Part shown: positions 12,126-56,635 of the stretch, piece by piece
Numbering within the stretch: the first letter of the stretch is position 1
Layout of the letters: each line of letters starts with the position of its first letter
Assembly (NCBI GenBank): GCA_965197645.1
Contig: OZ240219.1
Coordinates: 2,624,001 to 2,688,000, forward strand
From: Dehalococcoidia bacterium
GTDB lineage: Bacteria; Chloroflexota; Dehalococcoidia; Plut-88900
DNA length: 64,000 nucleotides
Direction: 5' to 3'
The notes under the pieces: generated by a model
Told to the model about the DNA's origin: nothing
Seen by the model: the letters and a program-made list of their open reading frames with translations, nothing else
Database searches by the model: none
Position numbers and translations under genes: made by a program

Positions 12126-14297
12126 ATGCTAAGGCTGTACAACACACTCAGCAGGACCACCGACGAGATTAGAACGGTCACCCCGGGCCTGGTCAGGATG
12201 TACACCTGCGGCCCAACCGTCTACAGGGACGTCCACATCGGAAACCTGCGTTCCTACCTCATGGCGGACTGGATTCGCCGCACCCTGGAGTACCAGCAAT
12301 ACGAGGTGCTGCACGTCAAGAACATAACCGACGTGGGCCACATGCGGCAGGAGATGCTGGAGCAGGGTGAAGACAAGGTAATTGCCGAGGCGCTGGCCAA
12401 GGGCAGGACACCCCAGGAGATAGCCCAGCACTACACCGATTCCTTCCACCGAGACGAAGAGAAAGTCAACATTCTGCCCGCCCGATACTTCCCCAAGGCT
12501 ACCGACCACGTTCCGGAAATGGTGAGCCTGACCGAGACTCTGCTAGGCAAAGGCTCTGCCTACGAGGTCAATGGAAACGTCTACTTCGACGTGGACAACT
12601 CCCCCAGCTACGGCAAGCTATCCGGCAACACGGGCCAAGACATGCTGACCGGCGTCCGGATGGAGGCCGACCCCCAGAAACGAGACCCCAGGGACTTCAC
12701 TCTGTGGAAAGCCGCCGAACCGGGCAGGGAGCTCAAGTGGCCCAGCCCGTGGGGAGATGGGTTCCCCGGATGGCACATCGAATGCTCAGCCATGGCGGTC
12801 AAGTACCTGGGCACCGAGGTGGACCTGCATACCGGGGGAGTGGACAACATCTTTCCCCATCACGAAGGGGAGTTGGCGCAGAGCGAGGGGGCATACGGCG
12901 AACCCTACGTTCGGTGCTGGACCCACGGTCAGCACCTGCTAGCCGATGGGACCAAGATGGCCAAATCGGCGGCCAACGACTACACCTTATCGGACCTCGA
13001 ATCGCGAGGGTTCGATCCGCTGGCCTTGCGCTACCTGTGTCTCACGGTAAGGTACCGGACGCGATTGAATTTCACCTTCTCGGCCCTGAGGGCCGCCCAG
13101 AAGGGGCTGCAGAGGCTTCGCAACAGGGTTTGGGAATGGTCTACCATTGCGGAGAATGGCAGAGAACAGGAAAAGAGCGAGAGCTGGCGCACGGCTTTTC
13201 TGGAGCGCATCAACGATAATCTGGATATGCCCGGCGCACTCGTCGTAACGTGGGCGGCGGTCGGTTCGGAGCTGGACCCGGCTACCAAGCTAAAACTCTT
13301 GCTGGAGTTTGACCAAGTCCTGGGGCTGGGTCTTTCGGAGGTGCCGGAACGGTACGAGCCCACTGACCAGGTCCGCCGGCTGGTGGCGCAACGCCAGCCG
13401 CTGCGGGGGCAGAGCCTATTCGAGGATGCGGACCGGCTTCGCACCGAGGCTGGGTCGCTGGGATACGTGGTGGAGGATACGTCCAGCGGCAGCAGGGTAA
13501 GGCCCAAATCGGAGTTGGAGAAGAGAGAGCAGTTATGGCGGTCGATATCTTCTCCCAGGGAAGTGCCCTCGCTGCTGTCTCGCCCGGATGAGCTGGAATT
13601 CTCGGTAAACATCGTGGCCAGGGACCATCTAGAGGACATACGGAGGTGCGTGGAGGGCGTGCTGGAGTGGGGCCCTGGCAGCTCCATAGAGGCAGTGGTC
13701 GTCGACAACGGAGCCGAGGACAGTATCGGCCGGTGGCTGGAGGGCCTGTCCAAGGAGGACAGCCGGCTCCGGGTGTTCCACGCCGACCACGTCCTGGGAG
13801 AGGCGCAAGCCAGGAACATCTGCTTGGCTCAGAGCCTGGGCAAAAACGTCGTGCTCTTGGACACGAGCGTGGAGCTTAAAGGCGACATTTTTACGCCGAT
13901 AGCCCAGGCACTGGCAGGCAACTATGGCGGAGTGGTGGGGCCCTGGGGCCTCCGGTCCGAGGACTTCCATCACTTCCACGAAGAGATTACCGACGGCCTG
14001 TGCGATGCTATGCAGCTCTACTGCTTCGCCTTCCCTCGTGGTCTGGTATCGGAGATAGGCCTGCTGAGGGAAAGCTTTCGCTTTTACCGTAACCTGGATA
14101 TCGATTACAGCTTCCATTTCAAGGACAAAGGCTACAGCATCAGGGCCATTCCCAACTTGCCGCTGGAGCGCCACACCCACCGGGAGTGGGAGCGTCTCAG
14201 CCACGGTGAGCGTGACAAGCTGAGCCGGGTCAACTGGAAGCGTATGTTCAAGAAATGGGGTCATCGCAAGGACTTGTTGACGGCTTCCCACTCATAA
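12126..14297 (+). CDS. cysS: Cysteine--tRNA ligase fused to a C-terminal GT-A (family-2-like) glycosyltransferase domain
   Basis: YTCGPTVY, HIGN, NITDVGH, PGWHIECSAM, HTGGVDNIFPHHE, KMAKS, ADRLR...GYVVED; then VVVDNG...ARNICL...VLLDTSVEL. Confidence 0.88.
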   Translation: MLRLYNTLSRTTDEIRTVTPGLVRMYTCGPTVYRDVHIGNLRSYLMADWIRRTLEYQQYEVLHVKNITDVGHMRQEMLEQGEDKVIAEALAKGRTPQEIAQHYTDSFHRDEEKVNILPARYFPKATDHVPEMVSLTETLLGKGSAYEVNGNVYFDVDNSPSYGKLSGNTGQDMLTGVRMEADPQKRDPRDFTLWKAAEPGRELKWPSPWGDGFPGWHIECSAMAVKYLGTEVDLHTGGVDNIFPHHEGELAQSEGAYGEPYVRCWTHGQHLLADGTKMAKSAANDYTLSDLESRGFDPLALRYLCLTVRYRTRLNFTFSALRAAQKGLQRLRNRVWEWSTIAENGREQEKSESWRTAFLERINDNLDMPGALVVTWAAVGSELDPATKLKLLLEFDQVLGLGLSEVPERYEPTDQVRRLVAQRQPLRGQSLFEDADRLRTEAGSLGYVVEDTSSGSRVRPKSELEKREQLWRSISSPREVPSLLSRPDELEFSVNIVARDHLEDIRRCVEGVLEWGPGSSIEAVVVDNGAEDSIGRWLEGLSKEDSRLRVFHADHVLGEAQARNICLAQSLGKNVVLLDTSVELKGDIFTPIAQALAGNYGGVVGPWGLRSEDFHHFHEEITDGLCDAMQLYCFAFPRGLVSEIGLLRESFRFYRNLDIDYSFHFKDKGYSIRAIPNLPLERHTHREWERLSHGERDKLSRVNWKRMFKKWGHRKDLLTASHS

Positions 14298-16915: not shown

Positions 16916-17896
16916 TCAACCGCCAATTTCATGTCCCGATAGCGCCTGAAGCGCAGCCGTGTATGGGTCTATCCTGTCGGACTCAACCTCTTGTAGCAGC
17001 GTAGAAAGTCGACCATCAGCGCTCGTTTGTTGGACAACCTGCGCCTCGGCCTCGTCCCTTATCGTCTGGAGAAACTCGTTTCTCCGGCGAGCGCGGCGCC
17101 TTTCCTGTATCGTGCCCGTTTCCATGGAGCTTTGCCGGTGGGCCTCTATCGAATCGGCCAACCCTTCGATCCCAATACCCTCATTGGCCTGGGTGTCGAG
17201 GACCAGTGGGATCCATGGCCGGCCCTCGCTCCCCATGGAGAGCATCGATGAGACGTACTTGACCATATCGTTGGAGCCGGGCCTGTCCGACTTGTTGACG
17301 ACAAAGACATCAGCGATCTCCATTAGGCCGGCCTTCATCGTCTGCAGGGAGTCGCCCCCTTCGGGCACCAGGACCACCACCACCGTGTCGGCCACATCCA
17401 TGATGTCCAGCTCGGCCTGACCCACGCCCACGGTTTCCACGATAATGAAGTCGGCCCCGAAGGCATCAAGGCACTTGACGGCCCTTCTAGTGGTCTTAGG
17501 CAAGCCGCCGTGACTCCCCCTGGTCGCCATGCTGCGTATGAAGACTCCCTGGTCCCGGTAGTGTCTCTGCATACGCACGCGGTCGGCCAGTATGGCGCCG
17601 CCTGAAAAGGGGCTGGTGGGGTCCGCGGCCAGGATGCCGACCGTGGGCGAACCCTCCTGCTTTCGGAGATTGAAGATCAGCTGATCCACCAGGGTGCTTT
17701 TCCCCGCACCAGGTGGGCCCGTAACTCCCAGGCAGTAGCCCTTACCGGCATGGGGATGGACGGCCTTGACCACCTCAGCAACGTCCAAGCCATCTCTCTC
17801 TATGATGGTGAGGAGCCGGGCGAGGGCACGCTTATCGCCTGTTACGAGCCTTTGTATAAGCTCTTGAGGCGCCTTCTGCCGGCGGTTAGCAGTCAT
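16916..17896 (-). CDS. meaB: MeaB/ArgK G3E-family GTPase (B12 mutase chaperone)
   Basis: GPPGAGKST, DPTSPFSGGAILADRVRM, RSMATRG, ETVGVGQ, NKSD; ATG at 17896 overlaps the LysR stop (ATGA). Confidence 0.9.
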   Translation of the reverse strand: MTANRRQKAPQELIQRLVTGDKRALARLLTIIERDGLDVAEVVKAVHPHAGKGYCLGVTGPPGAGKSTLVDQLIFNLRKQEGSPTVGILAADPTSPFSGGAILADRVRMQRHYRDQGVFIRSMATRGSHGGLPKTTRRAVKCLDAFGADFIIVETVGVGQAELDIMDVADTVVVVLVPEGGDSLQTMKAGLMEIADVFVVNKSDRPGSNDMVKYVSSMLSMGSEGRPWIPLVLDTQANEGIGIEGLADSIEAHRQSSMETGTIQERRRARRRNEFLQTIRDEAEAQVVQQTSADGRLSTLLQEVESDRIDPYTAALQALSGHEIGG

Positions 17897-18825
17897 CCCT
17901 GACCGACATCGATCTCCATCGGAGTTTGCTGTGATCTCGCCCACTGGATGGCAAAGGAGAGGAACTCGTGCTGAAGCCTGCTGGTCAGGTGGTTCTCCAG
18001 ATATGTTATGTAAAGATGGCGTTTCAACTCAACACCCTCTATCTTCAGCGACCTTATTGAGCCGGATTCTATGCTCCTTCGGGCGGCGTAAGAGGAAACG
18101 AAGGCCACGCCAAGCCTGGCTTCCACCGCTGAGACGATGGACTGGGTGCTGCCGAAAACGGGGGCTCGCTGCCATTTGCGGCCATCGAAACCCGCTTCGT
18201 TCAGCAGCTTATAGACGCTTTCCATGGTACCCGAGCCCGACTCTCGTGTGATCAGCTTCTCCCCCTCCAGCTCCTCCAGGTTGATGGTCTGCCGTCGGGC
18301 GAAGGGATGGGACTCGGACACGATCAGCACGAGGTCGTCATCCAGGAACTTCTCGATATGCAGGCCCCTCCCTTCCACAGGCGCTCCTACGAAAGCCAGG
18401 TCACACTCCGCGCCGAGGAGCCGCTGCGATATAACCGCGGTATCTCCGATCTCCACCGAGGCCTCGACGGCGGGATGGACCGCCGAAAAATCTCCCAACA
18501 ATCGAGGTACGATGTACTCCCCAGGGACGGTGCTGGCGCCCAGCTCCAGCTTGCCGCTGACCTCGCCGGTCAGGCCCTGGAGCCGCTCCGACAGCCGGTG
18601 CTGCTCCGAGAGCACGTTGAGAGCGAAGCTGTGAAACTGCTCTCCCGCCGAGGTCATGGTCACCGAGCCTTCTTTGCGGTCTAGAAGGTGCATGCCCAAG
18701 TCCCGCTCCAGCTTCTGGATCTGATGGGTTACCGCCGGCTGGCTCAGGGAAAGACGCTTGGCAGCCTCCGAGAAGCTGCTTCGTTTGACCACCTCTATGT
18801 AGGTCTTCAAATACTCGAGATTCAT
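17893..18825 (-). CDS. LysR-family regulator (CysL/CmpR-like; selenium-metabolism-associated type)
   Basis: MNLEYLKTY...SFSEAAKRLSLSQPAVT HTH; GASTVPGEY, RESGSGT. Confidence 0.88.
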   Translation of the reverse strand: MNLEYLKTYIEVVKRSSFSEAAKRLSLSQPAVTHQIQKLERDLGMHLLDRKEGSVTMTSAGEQFHSFALNVLSEQHRLSERLQGLTGEVSGKLELGASTVPGEYIVPRLLGDFSAVHPAVEASVEIGDTAVISQRLLGAECDLAFVGAPVEGRGLHIEKFLDDDLVLIVSESHPFARRQTINLEELEGEKLITRESGSGTMESVYKLLNEAGFDGRKWQRAPVFGSTQSIVSAVEARLGVAFVSSYAARRSIESGSIRSLKIEGVELKRHLYITYLENHLTSRLQHEFLSFAIQWARSQQTPMEIDVGQG

Positions 18826-18840
18826 CCGGTTGATATGCCG

Positions 18841-18855
18841 ATAGAAGTTGGCTAT
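18841..18855. promoter_or_regulatory. Candidate LysR operator ATAG-N7-CTAT
   Basis: ATAG aagttgg CTAT is a T-N11-A dyad in the divergent lysR/ABC gap. Confidence 0.6.
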
Positions 18856-18946
18856 ACTCTCCATTCAAGTTGTTTAACGGCTTGACTGGGCAGAGTACGC
18901 ATAGTCCCAGCCCACTGATTATAACCACTGGAAAGAGGAATTCACA

Positions 18947-19816
18947 TTGCGCAATCCGGTCAAGGCCATAGGACTGGTCCTATTGACGGTCCTGTTGCTG
19001 GCGGTTGCAGCCTGCGGAGACTCCGGCAAGACCCTTTACTTCAGCGGCATTCCCGACCAGAACGCTGCCGAGCTGGCGAGACGATACGGCGTGTTCTCCG
19101 ATTACCTGAGCGAACAGCTGGGTGTGGAGGTCAAGTTCATCCCCAGCGTGGACTATGCGGCGGTAGTAACCGGGTTCAAGACGGGGGACCTTCAGTTGGG
19201 CTGGTTTGGTGGCCTGACGGGCGTGCAGGCTCGCATAGCGGTACCCGACTCGGTGGCCATAGCACAGCGCCCCCGGGACACCGAGTTTCATTCCGAGTTC
19301 ATAGTCCAAGCGGACATAGAAGCTGATTCGCTGGAAGACCTGCGCGGGCTTACCTTCACCTTCGGCAGCGAAAACTCCACTTCAGGGCACCTGATGCCTC
19401 GCCATTTCCTGCTTGAGGCCGGCATCGACCCCGAAACCGATTTTCCCAGTGGACCCAACTACTCAGGGTCTCACGATAAGACGTGGCGGCTGGTCGAGAG
19501 CGGAGCGTTCCAGGCCGGGGCCCTTAACGAAGCGGTATGGGACAAAGCGGTCGAGGACGGCAGGGTGGACACCTCCGAGGTACGAGTGCTTGAAACGACG
19601 CCACCCTACTACGATTACAACTGGACCATCAGGGGCGATGTGGAGCAGGAGTTCGGCGCTGGATTCATCGAAAAGGTCAGGCAGGCGCTCCTGGATATAG
19701 ATGAGGAACAGCAGGAGATCCTGGACCTGTTCTCGGCGGAGGGGTTCATCGAGTCCGAAAACAGCAACTACGATGCCATACTCGATATAGCTAGAGACTT
19801 GGACATCGTTAGATGA
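18947..19816 (+). CDS. PhnD-like ABC substrate-binding lipoprotein (putative selenate-type subfamily)
   Basis: Lipobox VAAC, IPDQ, WFGGLTGVQAR, FTFGS.NSTSGHLMPR, SGSHDKT, TPPYYDYNWT. Confidence 0.82.
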   Translation: MRNPVKAIGLVLLTVLLLAVAACGDSGKTLYFSGIPDQNAAELARRYGVFSDYLSEQLGVEVKFIPSVDYAAVVTGFKTGDLQLGWFGGLTGVQARIAVPDSVAIAQRPRDTEFHSEFIVQADIEADSLEDLRGLTFTFGSENSTSGHLMPRHFLLEAGIDPETDFPSGPNYSGSHDKTWRLVESGAFQAGALNEAVWDKAVEDGRVDTSEVRVLETTPPYYDYNWTIRGDVEQEFGAGFIEKVRQALLDIDEEQQEILDLFSAEGFIESENSNYDAILDIARDLDIVR

Positions 19817-20604
19817 AAGTCGATCGAAACGGCAGCACGCCCATGTTCCTGCTTTCAGGCGCCGCCAAGCGGTACCCCGGCACCGTGGCGCTGGCCCCGA
19901 TCCGGCTGGAGATCGGACACGAGGAGCGGGTGGCCATCGTAGGGCCCAGCGGCAGCGGCAAGACGACCTTGCTTCACCTGCTGGGAGGTATAATCCAGCC
20001 CGACGTGGGAGGGGTTTTCATCGATGGGCGTCCCATGGCCAAGCAGTCCCCGGGACGAGAGCTGGCCGGCCTGGTGGGTATGATCCACCAACACTACGAC
20101 CTGGTCCCCAGGCTTTCGGTTGTGCACAACGTGCTGGCCGGGCGTCTCGGCTACTGGAGTTTCTGGCGCTCGCTGCTTTCCCTGGCCTCGCCTCAAGACC
20201 GCAACCATGCCCTAGAGGCCCTGAGGACGGCGGGAATCGAGGACAAGATAAACGAACGCACTTCGAGGCTCTCGGGGGGAGAACAGCAGAGAGTGGCCAT
20301 CGCCCGTTTGCTGGTGCAGGACCCCAGGGCCATCATCGCCGACGAGCCGGTGGCCTCATTGGACCCGACCCGCTCCACGGACCTGATGCGATTGCTGCGA
20401 GAGATAGCCGAGGCCTCCGGCAAGACCCTGGTCGCCAGCCTTCACTCCATTGAGTTAGTCAAGGAGCATTTCTCGCGGGTGATTGGACTGCGGGTCGGCG
20501 AGCTGGCTTTCGATATGCCGGTGGACCAATTGACCGACGAGGTCCTGGATGAGCTTTATCATATCGGAGAGACGGCAACCGACCGCCTGGTTCCGGTTTC
20601 TTGA
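19813..20604 (+). CDS. PhnC-like ABC ATPase
   Basis: GPSGSGKT, NVLAGRLG, LSGGEQQRV, ADEPVASLDP. Confidence 0.9.
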   Translation: MKVDRNGSTPMFLLSGAAKRYPGTVALAPIRLEIGHEERVAIVGPSGSGKTTLLHLLGGIIQPDVGGVFIDGRPMAKQSPGRELAGLVGMIHQHYDLVPRLSVVHNVLAGRLGYWSFWRSLLSLASPQDRNHALEALRTAGIEDKINERTSRLSGGEQQRVAIARLLVQDPRAIIADEPVASLDPTRSTDLMRLLREIAEASGKTLVASLHSIELVKEHFSRVIGLRVGELAFDMPVDQLTDEVLDELYHIGETATDRLVPVS

Positions 20605-21373
20605 GAGCCGTCGATTTCTAACAGTCCTGTTCCTGGCCGTACTGGCCTGGAGCCTCTACAACGTCGATTGGGGAGGCTCCATCATCCACACCGGCGGGGC
20701 ACGCTCCCTCGTAGACCTGGTCCGCACCTTCTTCACCCCTGAAATAGCGCCCTCATTTCTCAAGCTGGCCCTAGAAGCGACGTGGCTGACGGTGAGCTAC
20801 GCCGTTGCCGGCATCACCATCGCCATAGTGATAGGCCTGGTGATGGGAGTGATGGCTTCGGGTGTCCTGGCCCGGTCCGAGACCAACCGCCGCACGATGA
20901 TGATCGGCACCCGGGCCTTCCTGGCCGTCACCCGCTCGATTCATGAGCTGGTGTGGGCATGGTTCTTCGTGGTAGCCATCGGGCTGTCGCCCATGGCCGG
21001 GGTGCTCGGCCTCGCTATCCCCTACGGTGGCATACTGGGTCGGATATACGCCGATATCCTGAACGACGTGCCCCGAGAGCCGTTGAGGGCGCTTAGAGGC
21101 GCCGGCGCATCGGAGTGGAAGGTGCTGATATACGGCCGGCTCCCCATGGCCCTTCCGGATATGCTCAGCTACGGCTTCTACCGGTTCGAATGCGCTGTAA
21201 GGGCATCTGCGATCATGGGGTTCGTTGGTGTGGGCGGTCTCGGGCTGCAGATCCAGCTCTCCCTCGACGATCTGCTGTTCAACGAAGTGTGGACCCTGCT
21301 GTTCTTCCTCGTCGCCGTGGTGGTTGCGGTGGATTTGTGGAGCAGTGCGCTGCGCCGAAGGCTGACCAGATGA
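20549..21373 (+). CDS. PhnE-like ABC permease 1
   Basis: RSIHELVWA, YRFECAVRAS..GFVG.GGLG. Confidence 0.88.
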   Translation: MSFIISERRQPTAWFRFLESRRFLTVLFLAVLAWSLYNVDWGGSIIHTGGARSLVDLVRTFFTPEIAPSFLKLALEATWLTVSYAVAGITIAIVIGLVMGVMASGVLARSETNRRTMMIGTRAFLAVTRSIHELVWAWFFVVAIGLSPMAGVLGLAIPYGGILGRIYADILNDVPREPLRALRGAGASEWKVLIYGRLPMALPDMLSYGFYRFECAVRASAIMGFVGVGGLGLQIQLSLDDLLFNEVWTLLFFLVAVVVAVDLWSSALRRRLTR

Positions 21374-51566: not shown

Positions 51567-52295
51567 TTACAGGTTGAGGATGGAGAAGGACACCGCGTAA
51601 TCGCAGCCCACCTGCTCTCCGACCGCTGCGGCGCCGAAGGTGAGGAACATCTCGGGATCGAAGCCGCCTTCCAGGTTGTCGATGTAGACCTTGTGCTCCT
51701 TCAGTGAGGCCACTCCCCTATCGATGTAGTCGGTGACGTCGACGTAGTAGGTCGGCTGGGGAGGGTGGCTGATGAATATCCTCTTGACCCCTGTCCAGGG
51801 ATCGTATCCCTCGGCAACCAGTTCCGGGAAGATCCACCGGTTACCGGCGTCGCGGGCGGCGTCCAGCACGGCCAAGCCCACCCAGCGGTGGTCGGCCATG
51901 TTGAAGGTCTCGGAGCCCCAGGTCAGCTCGTGGTTGCCCGAGAGGATAACGTCGGGCTTGTGCTTACGGATGACCCTGGAAATGTCCCGGCGGAGATCGT
52001 TTCCGTATTCGATAACGCCATCGACGTGGTCCAGGAACTCGACGACGTCGACACCCACCACTTTTGCGCTCGCTATCTGCTCCAGCTCCCGGAGGGGCCC
52101 GGCTTCTTCTGGCGCCACCGAGTCGATACCGGCCTCGCCCCGGGTGACCATGAGATAGATCACCTCTTTGCCCTCGTCAGTCCAGCGAGCAATGGCGCTG
52201 GAGGATCCGAACTCCAGGTCGTCCGGGTGGGCGACTATGGCCATCATCTTGTTCCAATCTTCGGGAAGTTCTTGCAGCTCGGGTTGTTCGGACAT
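51567..52295 (-). CDS. PIG-L family deacetylase
   Basis: AHPDD, TRGEAG, REQ-like motif, ADH. Confidence 0.9.
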   Translation of the reverse strand: MSEQPELQELPEDWNKMMAIVAHPDDLEFGSSSAIARWTDEGKEVIYLMVTRGEAGIDSVAPEEAGPLRELEQIASAKVVGVDVVEFLDHVDGVIEYGNDLRRDISRVIRKHKPDVILSGNHELTWGSETFNMADHRWVGLAVLDAARDAGNRWIFPELVAEGYDPWTGVKRIFISHPPQPTYYVDVTDYIDRGVASLKEHKVYIDNLEGGFDPEMFLTFGAAAVGEQVGCDYAVSFSILNL

Positions 52296-52509: not shown

Positions 52510-52899
52510 GGGACGGCAAGGAGACCTGTAAGCCGAGTTCTGTGTCTCGACGGAATCGAGACGGTGGCCATCTATCTAGGCCCGACGTTGCCGGCGGGCT
52601 CAAGCGGCCAACCCGAGGACGGGCCGGGGCCCATAGTCCTCCTATTTGGCCTTGCTCCGGATGGGGTTTGCCCAGCTAGCCGGTCTCCCGGTCTACTGGT
52701 GAGCTCTTACCTCGCCATTTCACCCTTACCCCGACTCGCCGGCCTGAGCCGGCCCATCGGGGCGGTACGTTTCTGTGGCACTTTCCGTAGGGTTTCCCCT
52801 CCTGGGAGTTACCCAGCATCCTGCCCGGTGGAGCTCGGACTTTCCTCTCCGGCCCTTCCGAGGAAGGACTGAAGCGACCACCCGGTCTCCATGCGTCCC
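52510..52899 (-). ncRNA. rnpB: RNase P RNA (type A)
   Basis: Reverse complement has GAGGAAAGTCCGAGC, AAGTGCCACAGAAA, GGGTGAAA, GAGCAAGGCCAAATAGG, ACAGAACTCGGCTTA; the ends pair as P1. Confidence 0.95.
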
Positions 52900-52904
52900 G
52901 CTTA

Positions 52905-52934
52905 AGCGTACTGTAACTGCTCGCAGCGGGTCAA
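52905..52934 (-). promoter_or_regulatory. Sigma70-type promoter for rnpB
   Basis: TTGACC (52934-52929), 18 nt, TACGCT (52910-52905); the -35 overlaps the rnhA stop. Confidence 0.6.
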
Positions 52935-53350
52935 ACCCGTCTCCGGTCCAGCGCCCGATTGCAGAGCGCGTCGGCGTGGCGGTTCTGCGACCGAGGCACG
53001 TGCCGGATGGTGTACTGATCGAACCGGTCCAGGAGCCGCTGGGCCTCTCCGGCCAGGGACCTGAGGTTCGGCTTCTTGATCCGGTATCCGCCGCTGAGTT
53101 GCTTGACCACCAGCTCCGAGTCCAGCCTGATCTGGACAGAACCGATCCCCAGCTCGAGGGCCTTGGAGAGGGTCTCGATGAGAGCCTGGTACTCGGCAAC
53201 GTTGTTGGTGGTCCTGCCGATGATACGACTCACCTCGCCCAGCACTCCGCCGTTGGGGTCCTGGACTACGCCTCCGATGGCCGCCGGCCCGGGGTTGCCC
53301 CGCGATCAGCCATCGGAGTACACCTGCGCTGTAGTAACCTTCTCCGCCAT
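52931..53350 (-). CDS. rnhA: Ribonuclease HI with in-frame UGA at codon 15 (selenocysteine candidate, or pseudogene/sequence error)
   Basis: MAEKVTTAQVYSDG*SRGNPGPAAIG...TNNVAEY...LDSELV...HVPRSQNRHADAL; the ORF track starts it only at 53245. Confidence 0.85.
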
Positions 53351-53357
53351 CTATTGC

Positions 53358-54056
53358 TCAGCTTACGTAGAGGATCCGGCTACAGCTGGTACACTGCACG
53401 ACTTCTTGACCGACCCGCGCCCTCTGCACGATTCCGACAGGGAGGGTGATGCGGCATCCCTGGCACATCCCTCGTTCAACCTTGGCTATCGTCGAGACAC
53501 CCTTGGAGCTTCGGACGGACTCGTAGACGCCAACAGCGCCGCGATCGATGGCGGCCGCCAGGCCTTGCCGCTTCTTTCCCAGATCGCTCAGCTGCACTTC
53601 AAGCCTGGCCTTCTCGTCCGCTAGCCGCTTGAGGTCATCGTCCCGCTGGGTCTCCAGGGCGGCGAACTCGGAGGAAGACTCCTCCAGATTGATCCTGGCT
53701 TCGTCCACCTTGTCCATCAGAATCAGGGACTTTTCTTCCACATCTCCTATCTGTCTTTTCAGGATAGCCGCCTCCAGAGCGAAGCCCTCGAGCTCCCGGG
53801 GGTTGGTTATCGAGCCTCCGTAGGCCTTCTGCTCGACCGATTTCAGCTTGGTCTGAAGGTCGGAAAGGGTGTTGTCCACATCTCGCTGTTCCCTGTCCAG
53901 GCCGGCGAGCTCTTCCGTACGACTAGAGACGAGCTGCTTCAGCTTCTTCAGGGCCTCGTCGTCTTCCAGTTGCCGTATCACCTCGGACAAGTCCGATTCC
54001 CGATCGTGGATATCCACGTCCAGAAGGTGCAGCTGATACAGATCTCTGGTGCTCAT
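53358..54056 (-). CDS. Coiled-coil C4 zinc-ribbon protein (DUF164-like)
   Basis: Long coiled coil then CQGC...CTSCSRILY; upstream of rnhA-rnpB. Confidence 0.85.
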   Translation of the reverse strand: MSTRDLYQLHLLDVDIHDRESDLSEVIRQLEDDEALKKLKQLVSSRTEELAGLDREQRDVDNTLSDLQTKLKSVEQKAYGGSITNPRELEGFALEAAILKRQIGDVEEKSLILMDKVDEARINLEESSSEFAALETQRDDDLKRLADEKARLEVQLSDLGKKRQGLAAAIDRGAVGVYESVRSSKGVSTIAKVERGMCQGCRITLPVGIVQRARVGQEVVQCTSCSRILYVS

Positions 54057-54292
54057 GTCAAATCCCAAGGATACAAAAAGGGCCGGGAAACGTTGTTAGA
54101 GATAACGAACGCCACCTCGATTGGTTCAATTCTAAAAACAGGGCTGGGCGGTGTCAATGAATCGCTCTCCCACAAAATCTGCTGCGAGAACTACGGAGGC
54201 CATAAACTGTTCTGCAGTATGGTCCGGGTCAGGCGCCTGATAATGTGCTAAACTTTTTTTGTTGCTCGGATGACCTTCGATAGGCATCAGTT

Positions 54293-55702
54293 ATGTCGCG
54301 AACCAGACTAACACTCGTTATTATGGTCCTCACCATGGTCGCCGTGGTAGGCATCGCCTGCCGGACTTCCGGTGCGGCTACATCAGGAGAGCCTGAGGCC
54401 ACGCCTATCCCCGAGGTGTTCATCCCAGACGAAGGACGCATCCTCTACGAGGCGTGGCGGGTCATTATGCAGGACTTCGTCGAGCAGGACATTCTCGACC
54501 CCCGGCTACTGAGCGACGGCTCGATACTGGGGATCATAGCCAGCGATGAGGAGACTGTTCTATCTCTGCAAGCGGCCAGAGACCTGGTATACGACCTGGA
54601 CAACGCCGGCGGATTCTTCGATATCCCGGGCGGGGAGCAGCTGCGGGAGGCCTACGAGGTCTGGGCCTATGCCTACGAAGAAACGGTGGAAGAAGGCGAT
54701 AGGACCGTGCCGGAGCTCAACGAGGCAGCGATACGGGGATTGGTCGGCGCCCTGGGAGACCCGTACACCTCCTATCTGACGGCCACCGACCTGGAACTGG
54801 ACCGGTCGGACCTGAGAGGCTCCTTCGAGGGGATTGGCGCCTACGTTTCGACCAACGACGACGGATACCTGGTGATCATAGCTCCCATTGAAAACACTCC
54901 TGCGGAGGCGGCCGGAATACGTCCCGGAGACATCGTCCTGGAGGTCAATCGAGAGCCGACCAATCTGATGACCCTGCAGGAAGCCATCTTGAAGATAAGG
55001 GGTCCCGAGGGTACGTCGGTCCACCTGCTGGTCAAACACCTGCTGGACGACGAGCCCGTGGAGATAACCATCACCCGGGGCGAGATACCCAGGTACAGCG
55101 TGGCCATGTACATGGAGAGCGACTTGGTAGCCCGGATCAGGATAGGGGTGTTCACTCAGAGAACTCCCGAAGAGGTGGAACTGGCGATAAGGCAAGCAGA
55201 AGAGGCTGGGGCCCAGGGGTTGATTATAGACGTGCGGCAGAATCCGGGAGGCCTCTTGGCCGAAACTGTCGAGACGACAGGGATTTTCCTCGACGGCGGC
55301 CTGGTACTGACGGAGGAAGACGGTACCGGTAGGGTGGTCGATTGGACCGCCAAGTCCGGCGGGACAACCGATATACCGTTGGCAGTACTCGTAGACCAGT
55401 TCAGCGCCAGCGGCGCTGAAGTGCTGGCCGGAGCGCTCCAGGACAGAGGCCGAGCCGTCCTCATTGGCGATCTTACCTTCGGCAAGGGCAGCGTGACCCA
55501 CCTGAGAATCCTTAGCGACGGATCGGGCATCTACATCACCTTCGCTCGCTGGTACACACCCTCCGGCGAGCTGATAGAGGGTGAGGGGGTCGAGCCCGAT
55601 ATCGAGGTGCTCTTCACGGAAGCTGACCTGGCTGCTCAGCGAGACCCCCAGGTGGAGGAAGCGTTGCGATACCTGGAGGAGCTTGTCACTGCCGGGACTT
55701 AG
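54293..55702 (+). CDS. ctpA: S41 carboxy-terminal processing protease (lipoprotein)
   Basis: GIAC lipobox, DPYTSY, FEGIG PDZ, DVRQNPGG, SASGAE, TFGKGSV. Confidence 0.92.
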   Translation: MSRTRLTLVIMVLTMVAVVGIACRTSGAATSGEPEATPIPEVFIPDEGRILYEAWRVIMQDFVEQDILDPRLLSDGSILGIIASDEETVLSLQAARDLVYDLDNAGGFFDIPGGEQLREAYEVWAYAYEETVEEGDRTVPELNEAAIRGLVGALGDPYTSYLTATDLELDRSDLRGSFEGIGAYVSTNDDGYLVIIAPIENTPAEAAGIRPGDIVLEVNREPTNLMTLQEAILKIRGPEGTSVHLLVKHLLDDEPVEITITRGEIPRYSVAMYMESDLVARIRIGVFTQRTPEEVELAIRQAEEAGAQGLIIDVRQNPGGLLAETVETTGIFLDGGLVLTEEDGTGRVVDWTAKSGGTTDIPLAVLVDQFSASGAEVLAGALQDRGRAVLIGDLTFGKGSVTHLRILSDGSGIYITFARWYTPSGELIEGEGVEPDIEVLFTEADLAAQRDPQVEEALRYLEELVTAGT

Positions 55703-56278: not shown

Positions 56279-56635
56279 GGGGACGCGTGGGTTCGACAGA
56301 GGGCGGGACTGTTCAGGGTTGCAGGCCGAGGTGCCGTTAACCTCGTAAAACAAGCGGCACAACTGTAACTGGCAACCGTCAGTTAGCAATGGCTGCCTAG
56401 TAACTTAGGTGGTCCGTCCAACCCGGTCTCCCTCGAAGGTTGGGATTGGGCGCCGATAAATCGAGGTGCGGCGGCCCCGATGCCGATAAGGGACGAGTAA
56501 GACATCATCGGATAGCCCGAAGGAACTCGGTCGGTAGAGGTCCGAAGGGCGAAACTCAAAGAGCCGACTAAGCCTGTAGTGGCTCTGGATGGCCCCCTTC
56601 TGGACGGGGAGTTCGACCCTCCCCCGTCTCCACCA
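56279..56635 (+). ncRNA. ssrA: tmRNA; tag (A)GNRQLAMAA** at 56371-56403
   Basis: 5' GGGGACG pairs with 3' CGTCTCC-ACCA including a G3.U pair; T-loop GTTCGAC; directly after smpB. Confidence 0.95.

Follow-up and report, generated by a model that had tools for sequence, protein, structure and literature searches.

In a 64,000-nucleotide (nt) stretch of a Dehalococcoidia bacterium genome (GenBank assembly GCA_965197645.1, contig OZ240219.1, positions 2,624,001 to 2,688,000; hereafter the window, whose own numbering we use unless a genome coordinate is given), we find an rnhA-like gene for a type 1 RNase H whose reading frame is interrupted by one in-frame UGA codon, two residues past a catalytic aspartate. 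The best explanation, and one we consider somewhat better than even, is that this UGA is read as selenocysteine (Sec) and that the gene encodes a Sec-containing RNase HI. An earlier note on this DNA had put forward the same central idea of Sec in an intact RNase HI, and that idea remains the best-supported reading; two supports that the note had offered for it, a downstream hairpin and a selenate-type transporter, fail. The note had also named three things to look at, namely the codon in sequencing reads, Cys at the UGA column in relatives and the selA, selB, selC and selD genes, and all three turn out as a Sec reading would have them.

The rnhA frame comprises 139 codons on the minus strand (53350-52931). 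It opens with ATG at 53350, reads MAEKVTTAQVYSDG up to the TGA at 53308-53306, continues as SRGNPGPAAIGG... and closes at a terminal TGA at 52933-52931. Its ATG lies 7 nt past the TGA stop of a gene encoding a CT398-like/Zn_ribbon_9 protein, and rnpB starts 37 nt downstream of it. The frame holds one internal stop and no frameshift or second lesion across all 139 codons, and the four acidic catalytic residues D13, E53, D77 and D127 are present. The first internal start, a GTG at 53245, would yield a 104-residue open reading frame (ORF) that lacks D13. The earlier note had described this same layout, including the start and UGA positions, the 7-nt spacing, the gene order, the intact acidic residues in an otherwise undamaged frame and the loss of the first Asp from the GTG product, and every factual element of that description holds. 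The features of the locus are as follows.

52931..53350, minus strand: rnhA-like gene (RVT_3 / type 1 RNase H), 139 codons, with the UGA as codon 15
53309..53350, minus strand: N-terminal 14 codons, MAEKVTTAQVYSDG, covering strand beta-1 and catalytic Asp13 (53314-53312)
53306..53308, minus strand: in-frame UGA, codon 15, the proposed Sec codon, two residues past catalytic Asp13
53271..53294, minus strand: candidate selenocysteine insertion sequence (SECIS) hairpin, CCCC-G-GGCC-GGC-GGCC-AUC-GG-A-GG, -8.4 kcal/mol
53233..53245, minus strand: internal GTG codons used as starts by gene callers (104-residue ORF from 53245; 100-residue database call P0002 from 53233)
53192..53194, minus strand: catalytic Glu53 (NNVAEY), an invariant alignment column
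53120..53122, minus strand: catalytic Asp77 (LDSEL), an invariant alignment column
52970..52972, minus strand: catalytic Asp127 (RHAD), an invariant alignment column
52961..52963, minus strand: Cys130, in the last helix three residues past Asp127, the sole other Cys/Sec-type residue of the protein
53358..54068, minus strand: upstream co-oriented gene for a CT398-like coiled coil with a C4 Zn ribbon (Pfam CT398_CC 4.7e-11, Zn_ribbon_9 9e-10)
52513..52893, minus strand: rnpB, bacterial RNase P RNA class A (Rfam RF00010, 301.8 bits)

The product, read through the UGA, belongs to type 1 RNase H and has a predicted RNase H fold. It matches Pfam RVT_3 over residues 12-133 with 97.5 bits (7e-28; cut-off 21.6) and Pfam RNase_H with 39.8 bits (6e-10; cut-off 25.8), and a search of the genome with PF00075 also recovers the UGA-containing gene. 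In the PDB its sequence matches Halobacterium RNase HI 4e19 (4.7e-34), 3u3g, the Rv2228c N-domain 3hst and Sulfolobus 2ehg. We aligned 115 rows (113 reference homologs, the window gene and its relative P0005); in this alignment E53, D77 and D127 never vary and D13 reaches a conservation of at least 90%, and all four carboxylates align with those of solved RNases H. An AlphaFold2 model built with Cys at residue 15 from a 32-sequence alignment is confident (mean predicted local distance difference test 95.4, predicted template modelling score 0.90) and shows strands (E) and helices (H) in the order E7-16, E21-30, E36-47, H49-66, E71-76, H79-85, H94-107, E112-117 and H120-138. The UGA column falls inside the first strand of this model, beta-1 (residues 7-16). 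Translation from an internal GTG would leave out beta-1, beta-2, the first part of beta-3 and Asp13, and a truncated protein missing strands of so confidently predicted a fold, and Asp13 with them, is implausible.

The in-frame UGA is real and fixed in the species. Logan contigs from three runs of three studies span 52821-54100 and differ from the window at 0 positions (X1), 13 positions (X3) and 19 positions plus one gap (X4), and no listed difference touches 53306-53308. X3 and X4 are distinct haplotypes, whereas X1, with no differences, may be the source sample. A 250-nt contig from a metatranscriptome (X11, 53259-53508) also matches without differences and keeps the TGA; it is the only RNA-library contig covering rnhA, may stem from DNA in the library and is no measure of expression level. 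Sequencing error can thus be rejected. The sole strain difference inside rnhA is 53088 C>T (G88E), at a variable column, giving 1 changed position in 420 compared with 12 and 18 of 711 in the neighbouring gene. Copies of this species in protein databases are all short: 100 residues on the window genome's 3.21-Mb contig, 100 residues with E88 on a second contig of 3.15 Mb, and 103 residues on an ENA contig.

An alternative genetic code is rejected as well, since TGA ends 760 of 2482 long coding ORFs of this genome (60% G+C), rnhA and its upstream neighbour among them. The other long coding ORFs end in TAG (1272) or TAA (450). Such dominance of TAG is unusual for a genome of 60% G+C and might relate to heavy UGA recoding.

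The genome encodes complete Sec machinery and runs a large selenoproteome. tRNA-Sec, the selC product, scores 66.4 bits against Rfam and is called SeC with anticodon tca by ARAGORN; selA (547.7 bits) and selB (346.8 bits) are present; and selD (379.7 bits) carries an in-frame UGA of its own. All four components score higher than their curated cut-offs. A codon-score scan for TGA flanked on both sides by coding sequence returned 47 candidates, and in at least 13 genes the domain match fits one protein whose translation continues through the UGA. For 12 of the 13, one Pfam domain spans the UGA (GRDA, three GRDB, ArsC, OsmC, DSBA, rhodanese, two AhpC-TSA, Thioredoxin_8-NHL and a Zn-dependent alcohol dehydrogenase), and the thirteenth, SelD, rests on its TIGR00476 match. 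Database names of relatives' proteins likewise place Dehalococcoidia-type genomes among the richest in selenoprotein genes, and the main text of the BSepDB paper counts two Dehalococcoidia among the ten bacteria richest in such genes (PMC13326102).

Three further UGA-containing sites in this genome deserve mention in their own right. The alcohol dehydrogenase (ADH_N + ADH_zinc_N; G000:C1:2857715-2858809, minus strand, L142) carries its TGA in GASGV-U-HSDLH, within the ADH_N match, and has a weak downstream hairpin of -3.3 kcal/mol; this is presumably the position of the Cys ligand of the catalytic zinc, which would make it a Sec-for-metal-ligand site. An MFS_3/MFS_1 transporter (C1:103540-104826, plus strand, L144) has its TGA in a hydrophobic segment, VVMFH-U-ILIMSF, and a DUF1989 protein (C1:1494195-1494836, minus strand, L147) in FLLNA-U-SPALFE, each with a Pfam domain spanning the codon. 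These last two may be new selenoproteins or nonsense pseudogenes.

We asked which residue other RNases H carry at the UGA column. Among 28 relatives' loci with the motif, Ala occurs in 25 and Cys, Gly and Ser in one each (one further locus lacks the motif). Metagenome loci (n=80) have Gly in 44, Ala in 34, and Cys and Leu in one each; the top protein hits with the motif (n=113) have Ala in 83, Gly in 26, Cys in two, and Val and Ser in one each; and the 78 GTDB loci have Gly in 60, Ala in 16 and Cys in one, plus one spurious off-frame hit. The column thus holds Ala or Gly nearly everywhere and Cys rarely; the earlier note had expected Ala, Gly or Ser with an occasional Cys.

The rare Cys residues are concentrated in the nearest relatives. 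P0004, at 69% identity the full-length homolog closest to the window gene, has Cys at the column (YADGCSRGNPGPAAIGGVVQ), as do P0018 and G002 (locus L025, 60% identical), in which the codon is TGT; the Cys case among the GTDB loci is G002 again. P0004, P0018 and G002 group with the window gene in a clade with support 99/95 that otherwise consists of two Ala subclades, and both Cys cases of the 113 top protein hits fall in this clade. A pairing of UGA with Cys in the nearest relatives, of the kind expected for a selenoprotein, thus exists here. An independent Cys15 sequence, the metagenome locus L095, lies outside the clade.

Cys130 is found in 22 of the 115 aligned rows, including the window gene, P0004, P0018 and P0005, and G002 has it too, so that all Cys15 sequences of the window gene's clade also have Cys130. 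We considered covariation of Cys15 with Cys130 as an independent signal and rejected it: Ala15 relatives have Cys130 as well, and L095 has Ala130.

The interruption appears to be shared with a sister species. P0005 is a 104-residue protein, 82% identical to the window gene product, that starts with MGEVSRF, in the very region where gene callers begin the truncated window gene; P0123, a 232-residue full-length ortholog of the Zn-ribbon protein, is 76% identical. Each comes from a Logan contig of 1376 nt, apparently the same one. As the two genes with their spacer take up some 1126 nt, this contig should also contain codons 1-36 of the sister rnhA, yet these were not callable as part of the gene, and databases list no N-terminal fragment of 30-75 residues for it.

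The window gene and P0005 are sisters in the tree (99/93; branch lengths 0.18 and 0.10) and differ at 17 of 102 columns. The 30 columns with a conservation of 90% or more among the 113 other homologs contain none of the 17 differences (hypergeometric P=0.0014), and the 41 columns with a conservation of 80% or more contain only two (P=0.007). rnhA is also more conserved than the neighbouring Zn-ribbon gene, at 82 versus 76% identity in the sister pair and 69 versus 59% in the pair with the intact Cys homolog. Residues 1-37 of the window gene, which lie upstream of the UGA and between it and the internal GTG, agree with the family consensus at all 13 of their columns with a conservation of 90% or more (13 of 13); on the upstream side the comparison is with homologs more distant than P0005. 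These comparisons indicate that the downstream reading frame has evolved under protein-level constraint. On the simplest reading, the interruption predates the split of the two species, and purifying selection has acted on the whole protein ever since, which would mean that the UGA is decoded.

Several observations weigh against decoding as Sec, beginning with the RNA downstream of the codon. The earlier note had pointed to a SECIS-like hairpin there. Such a hairpin does exist at 53294-53271, with a GGC triloop that starts at +23 from the U of the UGA and a second, interrupted 4-base-pair (bp) tier, but it is indistinguishable from background and from UGA-free orthologs. The 64 nt after the UGA fold at -21.9 kcal/mol compared with -26.6 for shuffled sequences (z +1.73), and an equal or better hairpin with a G in the loop occurs at 23.5% of 600 random in-frame coding positions of the genome. 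A perfect stem of at least 6 bp follows the UGA in 9 of the 13 selenoprotein genes (background 11% of 20,000 positions); that of rnhA is 4 bp, a length found at 50% of background positions. RNase H genes without the UGA fold better at the same position (mean -14.1 versus -12.2), and the window locus ranks 76th of the 109 loci, itself included, that we scored there. Rfam yielded no SECIS family match for rnhA at E-values up to 10, and in the nearest relatives with DNA the hairpin is missing owing to synonymous differences.

Taken as a whole, the SECIS evidence is neutral, if not negative. Perfect stems of at most 4 bp are likewise all that the GrdA, OsmC, peroxiredoxin (Prx) and alcohol dehydrogenase genes of this genome have, so a weak hairpin does not exclude Sec. 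Like rnhA, the rhodanese gene and the three GrdB genes carry a GGN triloop on a stem of at least 4 bp at +19 to +25, a form seen in 1.3% of 30,000 coding positions taken as background and, among 187 orthologous positions that lack UGA, in 8. This motif was defined post hoc and lends mild support to a SECIS. We also tried the energy of a constrained hairpin as a SECIS test and discarded it for lack of power, since the 13 selenoprotein genes range from -3.3 to -17.9 around a random coding mean of -9.3.

A second group of adverse points concerns the gene itself, which is dispensable in its family (12 genomes). In 5 of the 9 sister-genus genomes the Zn-ribbon gene lies 67-190 nt from rnpB with no rnhA between them, and the window genome also encodes an RNase HII and, scoring 150.8 bits, a canonical RNase HI that is intact. 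The deletions (L244-L248, in G005, G003, G007, G010 and G008) are clean losses; the four other species of the sister genus keep rnhA, with Ala at the column.

The phylogenetic evidence has adverse sides too. With Cys (TGY) in the nearest homologs, TGA is one mutation away, so a nonsense origin would be easy, and the column is normally Ala or Gly rather than a redox Cys. Nor is RNase H a redox enzyme. No other genome with readable DNA showed a UGA at this column among the 28 relatives' loci, the 80 metagenome loci, the 78 GTDB loci and the genomes of the class; in a class sample of 401 genomes, 177 of which gave a match, no match outside the window genome among the 149 listed has an internal stop there. 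TGA flags in the sister genus (G011, G009, G004 and G006) and in four class genomes (G356, G308, G231 and G190) proved to be terminal stops, and conservation of the UGA in the sister genus is rejected. That the sister species carries the same UGA is itself inferred from a truncated gene call, and we found no closer relative with readable DNA, the best metagenome contig being 55% identical and the best GTDB contig 60% identical to P0005.

Finally, full-text literature searches, including those for sponge or Dehalococcoidia selenoproteomes, returned no RNase H selenoprotein, in line with the earlier note's remark that RNase H is not a known selenoprotein family. The words 'RNase', 'ribonuclease' and 'nuclease' are absent from the main texts of BSepDB (PMC13326102) and deep-Sep (PMC12013277), whose supplementary family tables might list one. 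At least two other UGA-interrupted genes of this genome, those for the MFS_3 and DUF1989 proteins, are possibly plain pseudogenes. We attempted to derive a pseudogene base rate from the codon-score scan, which proved too noisy for the purpose: most of its 105 TAG and 21 TAA candidates were antisense frames or neighbouring genes. A sulfatase-like frame near G000:C1 2460203 (plus strand) with an in-frame TAG, in which TTDHGF..GEHGG follows the stop, suggests a pseudogene by its translated motif.

Many of these points would be accounted for by a nonsense pseudogene, in which TGY changed to TGA and became fixed in a redundant second RNase H of a symbiont-like lineage, leaving the gene dead and undecayed. 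TGA is one step from the TGT of G002, relatives have deleted the gene, the genome holds other RNases H and other possibly broken genes, the hairpin is ordinary, and no further UGA is seen at the column. A dead gene would nevertheless have to have escaped any second lesion in 139 codons while its N-terminal 37 residues stayed at consensus, and to be better conserved than its flanking gene both between species and among strains. The sister protein, truncated at the same place at 82% identity with differences that avoid conserved columns, would moreover require an independent recent interruption there or a misread sister contig. We therefore regard the pseudogene as unlikely; if it were true, the finding would be an ordinary one.

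A functional gene without Sec is less likely still, and we hold it to be improbable. Either a near-cognate tRNA (Trp or Cys) would then allow weak read-through of the UGA, or the gene would make a non-catalytic product of 100 to 104 residues from an internal GTG. In favour of such a gene, internal GTG codons are present, the SECIS is weak, and the constraint on the ORF downstream of the UGA agrees with every model that has this part translated. The truncated product, by the model, would be without beta-1, beta-2 and part of beta-3, and its retention of Glu53, Asp77 and Asp127, which do not vary across the alignment, P0005 included, would be unexplained; the N-terminal part would not be expected to keep its consensus either. 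Near-cognate read-through would face competition at the UGA from a working SelB system, and in E. coli UGA terminates strongly when the next base is U, which counts against read-through without Sec. An artefact or a different code, with TGA arising from GGA by one change at a column where Gly is common or reassigned to Gly or Trp, has a negligible chance, given three independent assemblies and an RNA-library contig that keep the TGA and the regular use of TGA as a stop in this 60% G+C genome.

Under the favoured reading, Sec in RNase HI, the gene would encode a full-length protein with predicted RNase H activity, one of the small type 1 enzymes that lack a basic protrusion, such as LC11, Sto and the RNase HI of Halobacterium. 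Cys, encoded by TGY, would be ancestral in the lineage and would have become UGA by one substitution before the split from the P0005 species. The organism's SelB/tRNA-Sec system would decode codon 15, with SelB using the GC-rich hairpin formed by the G-P-A-A-I-G-G codons, whose G-rich triloop lies 23 nt after the U of the UGA; related genes can form the same GC-rich hairpin, so it would have been available for exaptation. Sec would then sit on strand beta-1, two residues after the metal-binding Asp13. Selenium at this site could act as a redox-sensitive switch, as in the vicinal cysteines of human RNase H1, possibly together with Cys130, or it could reflect a near-neutral swap of Cys for Sec in a Sec-rich lineage. 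Redox or selenium dependence of R-loop and primer processing, which the earlier note had raised, is pure inference. The fullest version of this idea, which we rate as doubtful, is that the protein is the first selenoprotein nuclease, present in two related Dehalococcoidia species, with a SECIS exapted from the G-N-P-G-P-A-A-I-G codon hairpin and a selenol by the metal site, possibly pairing with Cys130, that makes hydrolysis of RNA/DNA hybrids switchable by redox or selenium.

The earlier note had cited a selenate-type transporter in support of its idea; the window's 20 largest coding ORFs include no such transporter and no member of a sulfate/selenate permease family. At 17896-21373 a LysR regulator adjoins an ABC (ATP-binding cassette) system with a Phosphonate-bd periplasmic binding protein. 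A 723-residue protein encoded at 12126-14294 (plus strand) fuses a class I catalytic domain of the Cys-tRNA-synthetase type (tRNA-synt_1e) to a family 2 glycosyltransferase domain, and together with a putative deacetylase-like ORF at 51567-52295 (AHPDD motif) it may point to a low-molecular-weight-thiol pathway. A transfer-messenger RNA with tag peptide GNRQLAMAA lies at 56279-56635 (plus strand), about 3 kb from rnpB, and between the two is a putative S41-type (PDZ) protease-like ORF (54293-55702), judged by eye.

If the UGA is indeed decoded as Sec, placement of Sec beside the metal-binding Asp of a phosphodiesterase would widen the known uses of selenium, and removal of R-loops and primers might be tied to redox or selenium status, echoing the cysteine switch of human RNase H1. 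The gene would also be a clean, young case of selenoprotein birth, in which a Cys codon one mutation from UGA was followed, at the right distance, by conserved codons able to form a hairpin, in a lineage whose Sec system is relaxed and in heavy use. rnhA would then be misannotated as a fragment of 100 to 104 residues in every database copy we found.

The closest known systems are the small type 1 RNases H without a basic protrusion, namely Halobacterium RNase HI (4e19/4nyn), the metagenomic enzyme 3u3g/4h8k, Sulfolobus tokodaii RNase HI (2ehg/3aly) and the Rv2228c N-terminal domain (3hst). The window protein resembles them over the whole domain (E-values 4.7e-34 to 6.5e-14, with alignments spanning residues 9-136), in its RVT_3 assignment and predicted RNase H-like order of strands and helices, and in the shared motifs DG-x-SRGNPGP, NNVAEY, DSEL and a final ADxL. 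It differs in that the four aligned solved RNases H have Ala or Gly after the catalytic DG, where the window gene has UGA. It also lacks a fused phosphatase domain of the CobC type, which we take to be present in M. tuberculosis Rv2228c (some database hit names mention such a domain). The order Rv2229c-Rv2228c-rnpB in M. tuberculosis is presumably the same arrangement of Zn-ribbon gene, RNase H gene and rnpB.

A redox precedent comes from human RNase H1, in which, according to a passage in PMC3750045 citing Lima et al. 2003, oxidation of cysteines in the catalytic domain switches activity off. The human switch involves two neighbouring cysteines and no selenium, whereas the window protein has one Sec/Cys column and a Cys130 on the last helix. 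The human switch cysteines presumably come directly after the catalytic Asp-Gly, which would place them at the same column as the UGA.

The gene is also like the lineage-specific bacterial selenoproteins that arose from Cys homologs: its in-frame UGA aligns with Cys in the nearest homologs, databases call it as a truncated gene, and its host is of the Dehalococcoidia type. The origin of Sec from Cys is the theme of PMC1794560. The great majority of known selenoprotein families are oxidoreductases in which Sec takes the place of a redox-active Cys, whereas the family of the window gene is one of metal-dependent phosphodiesterases.

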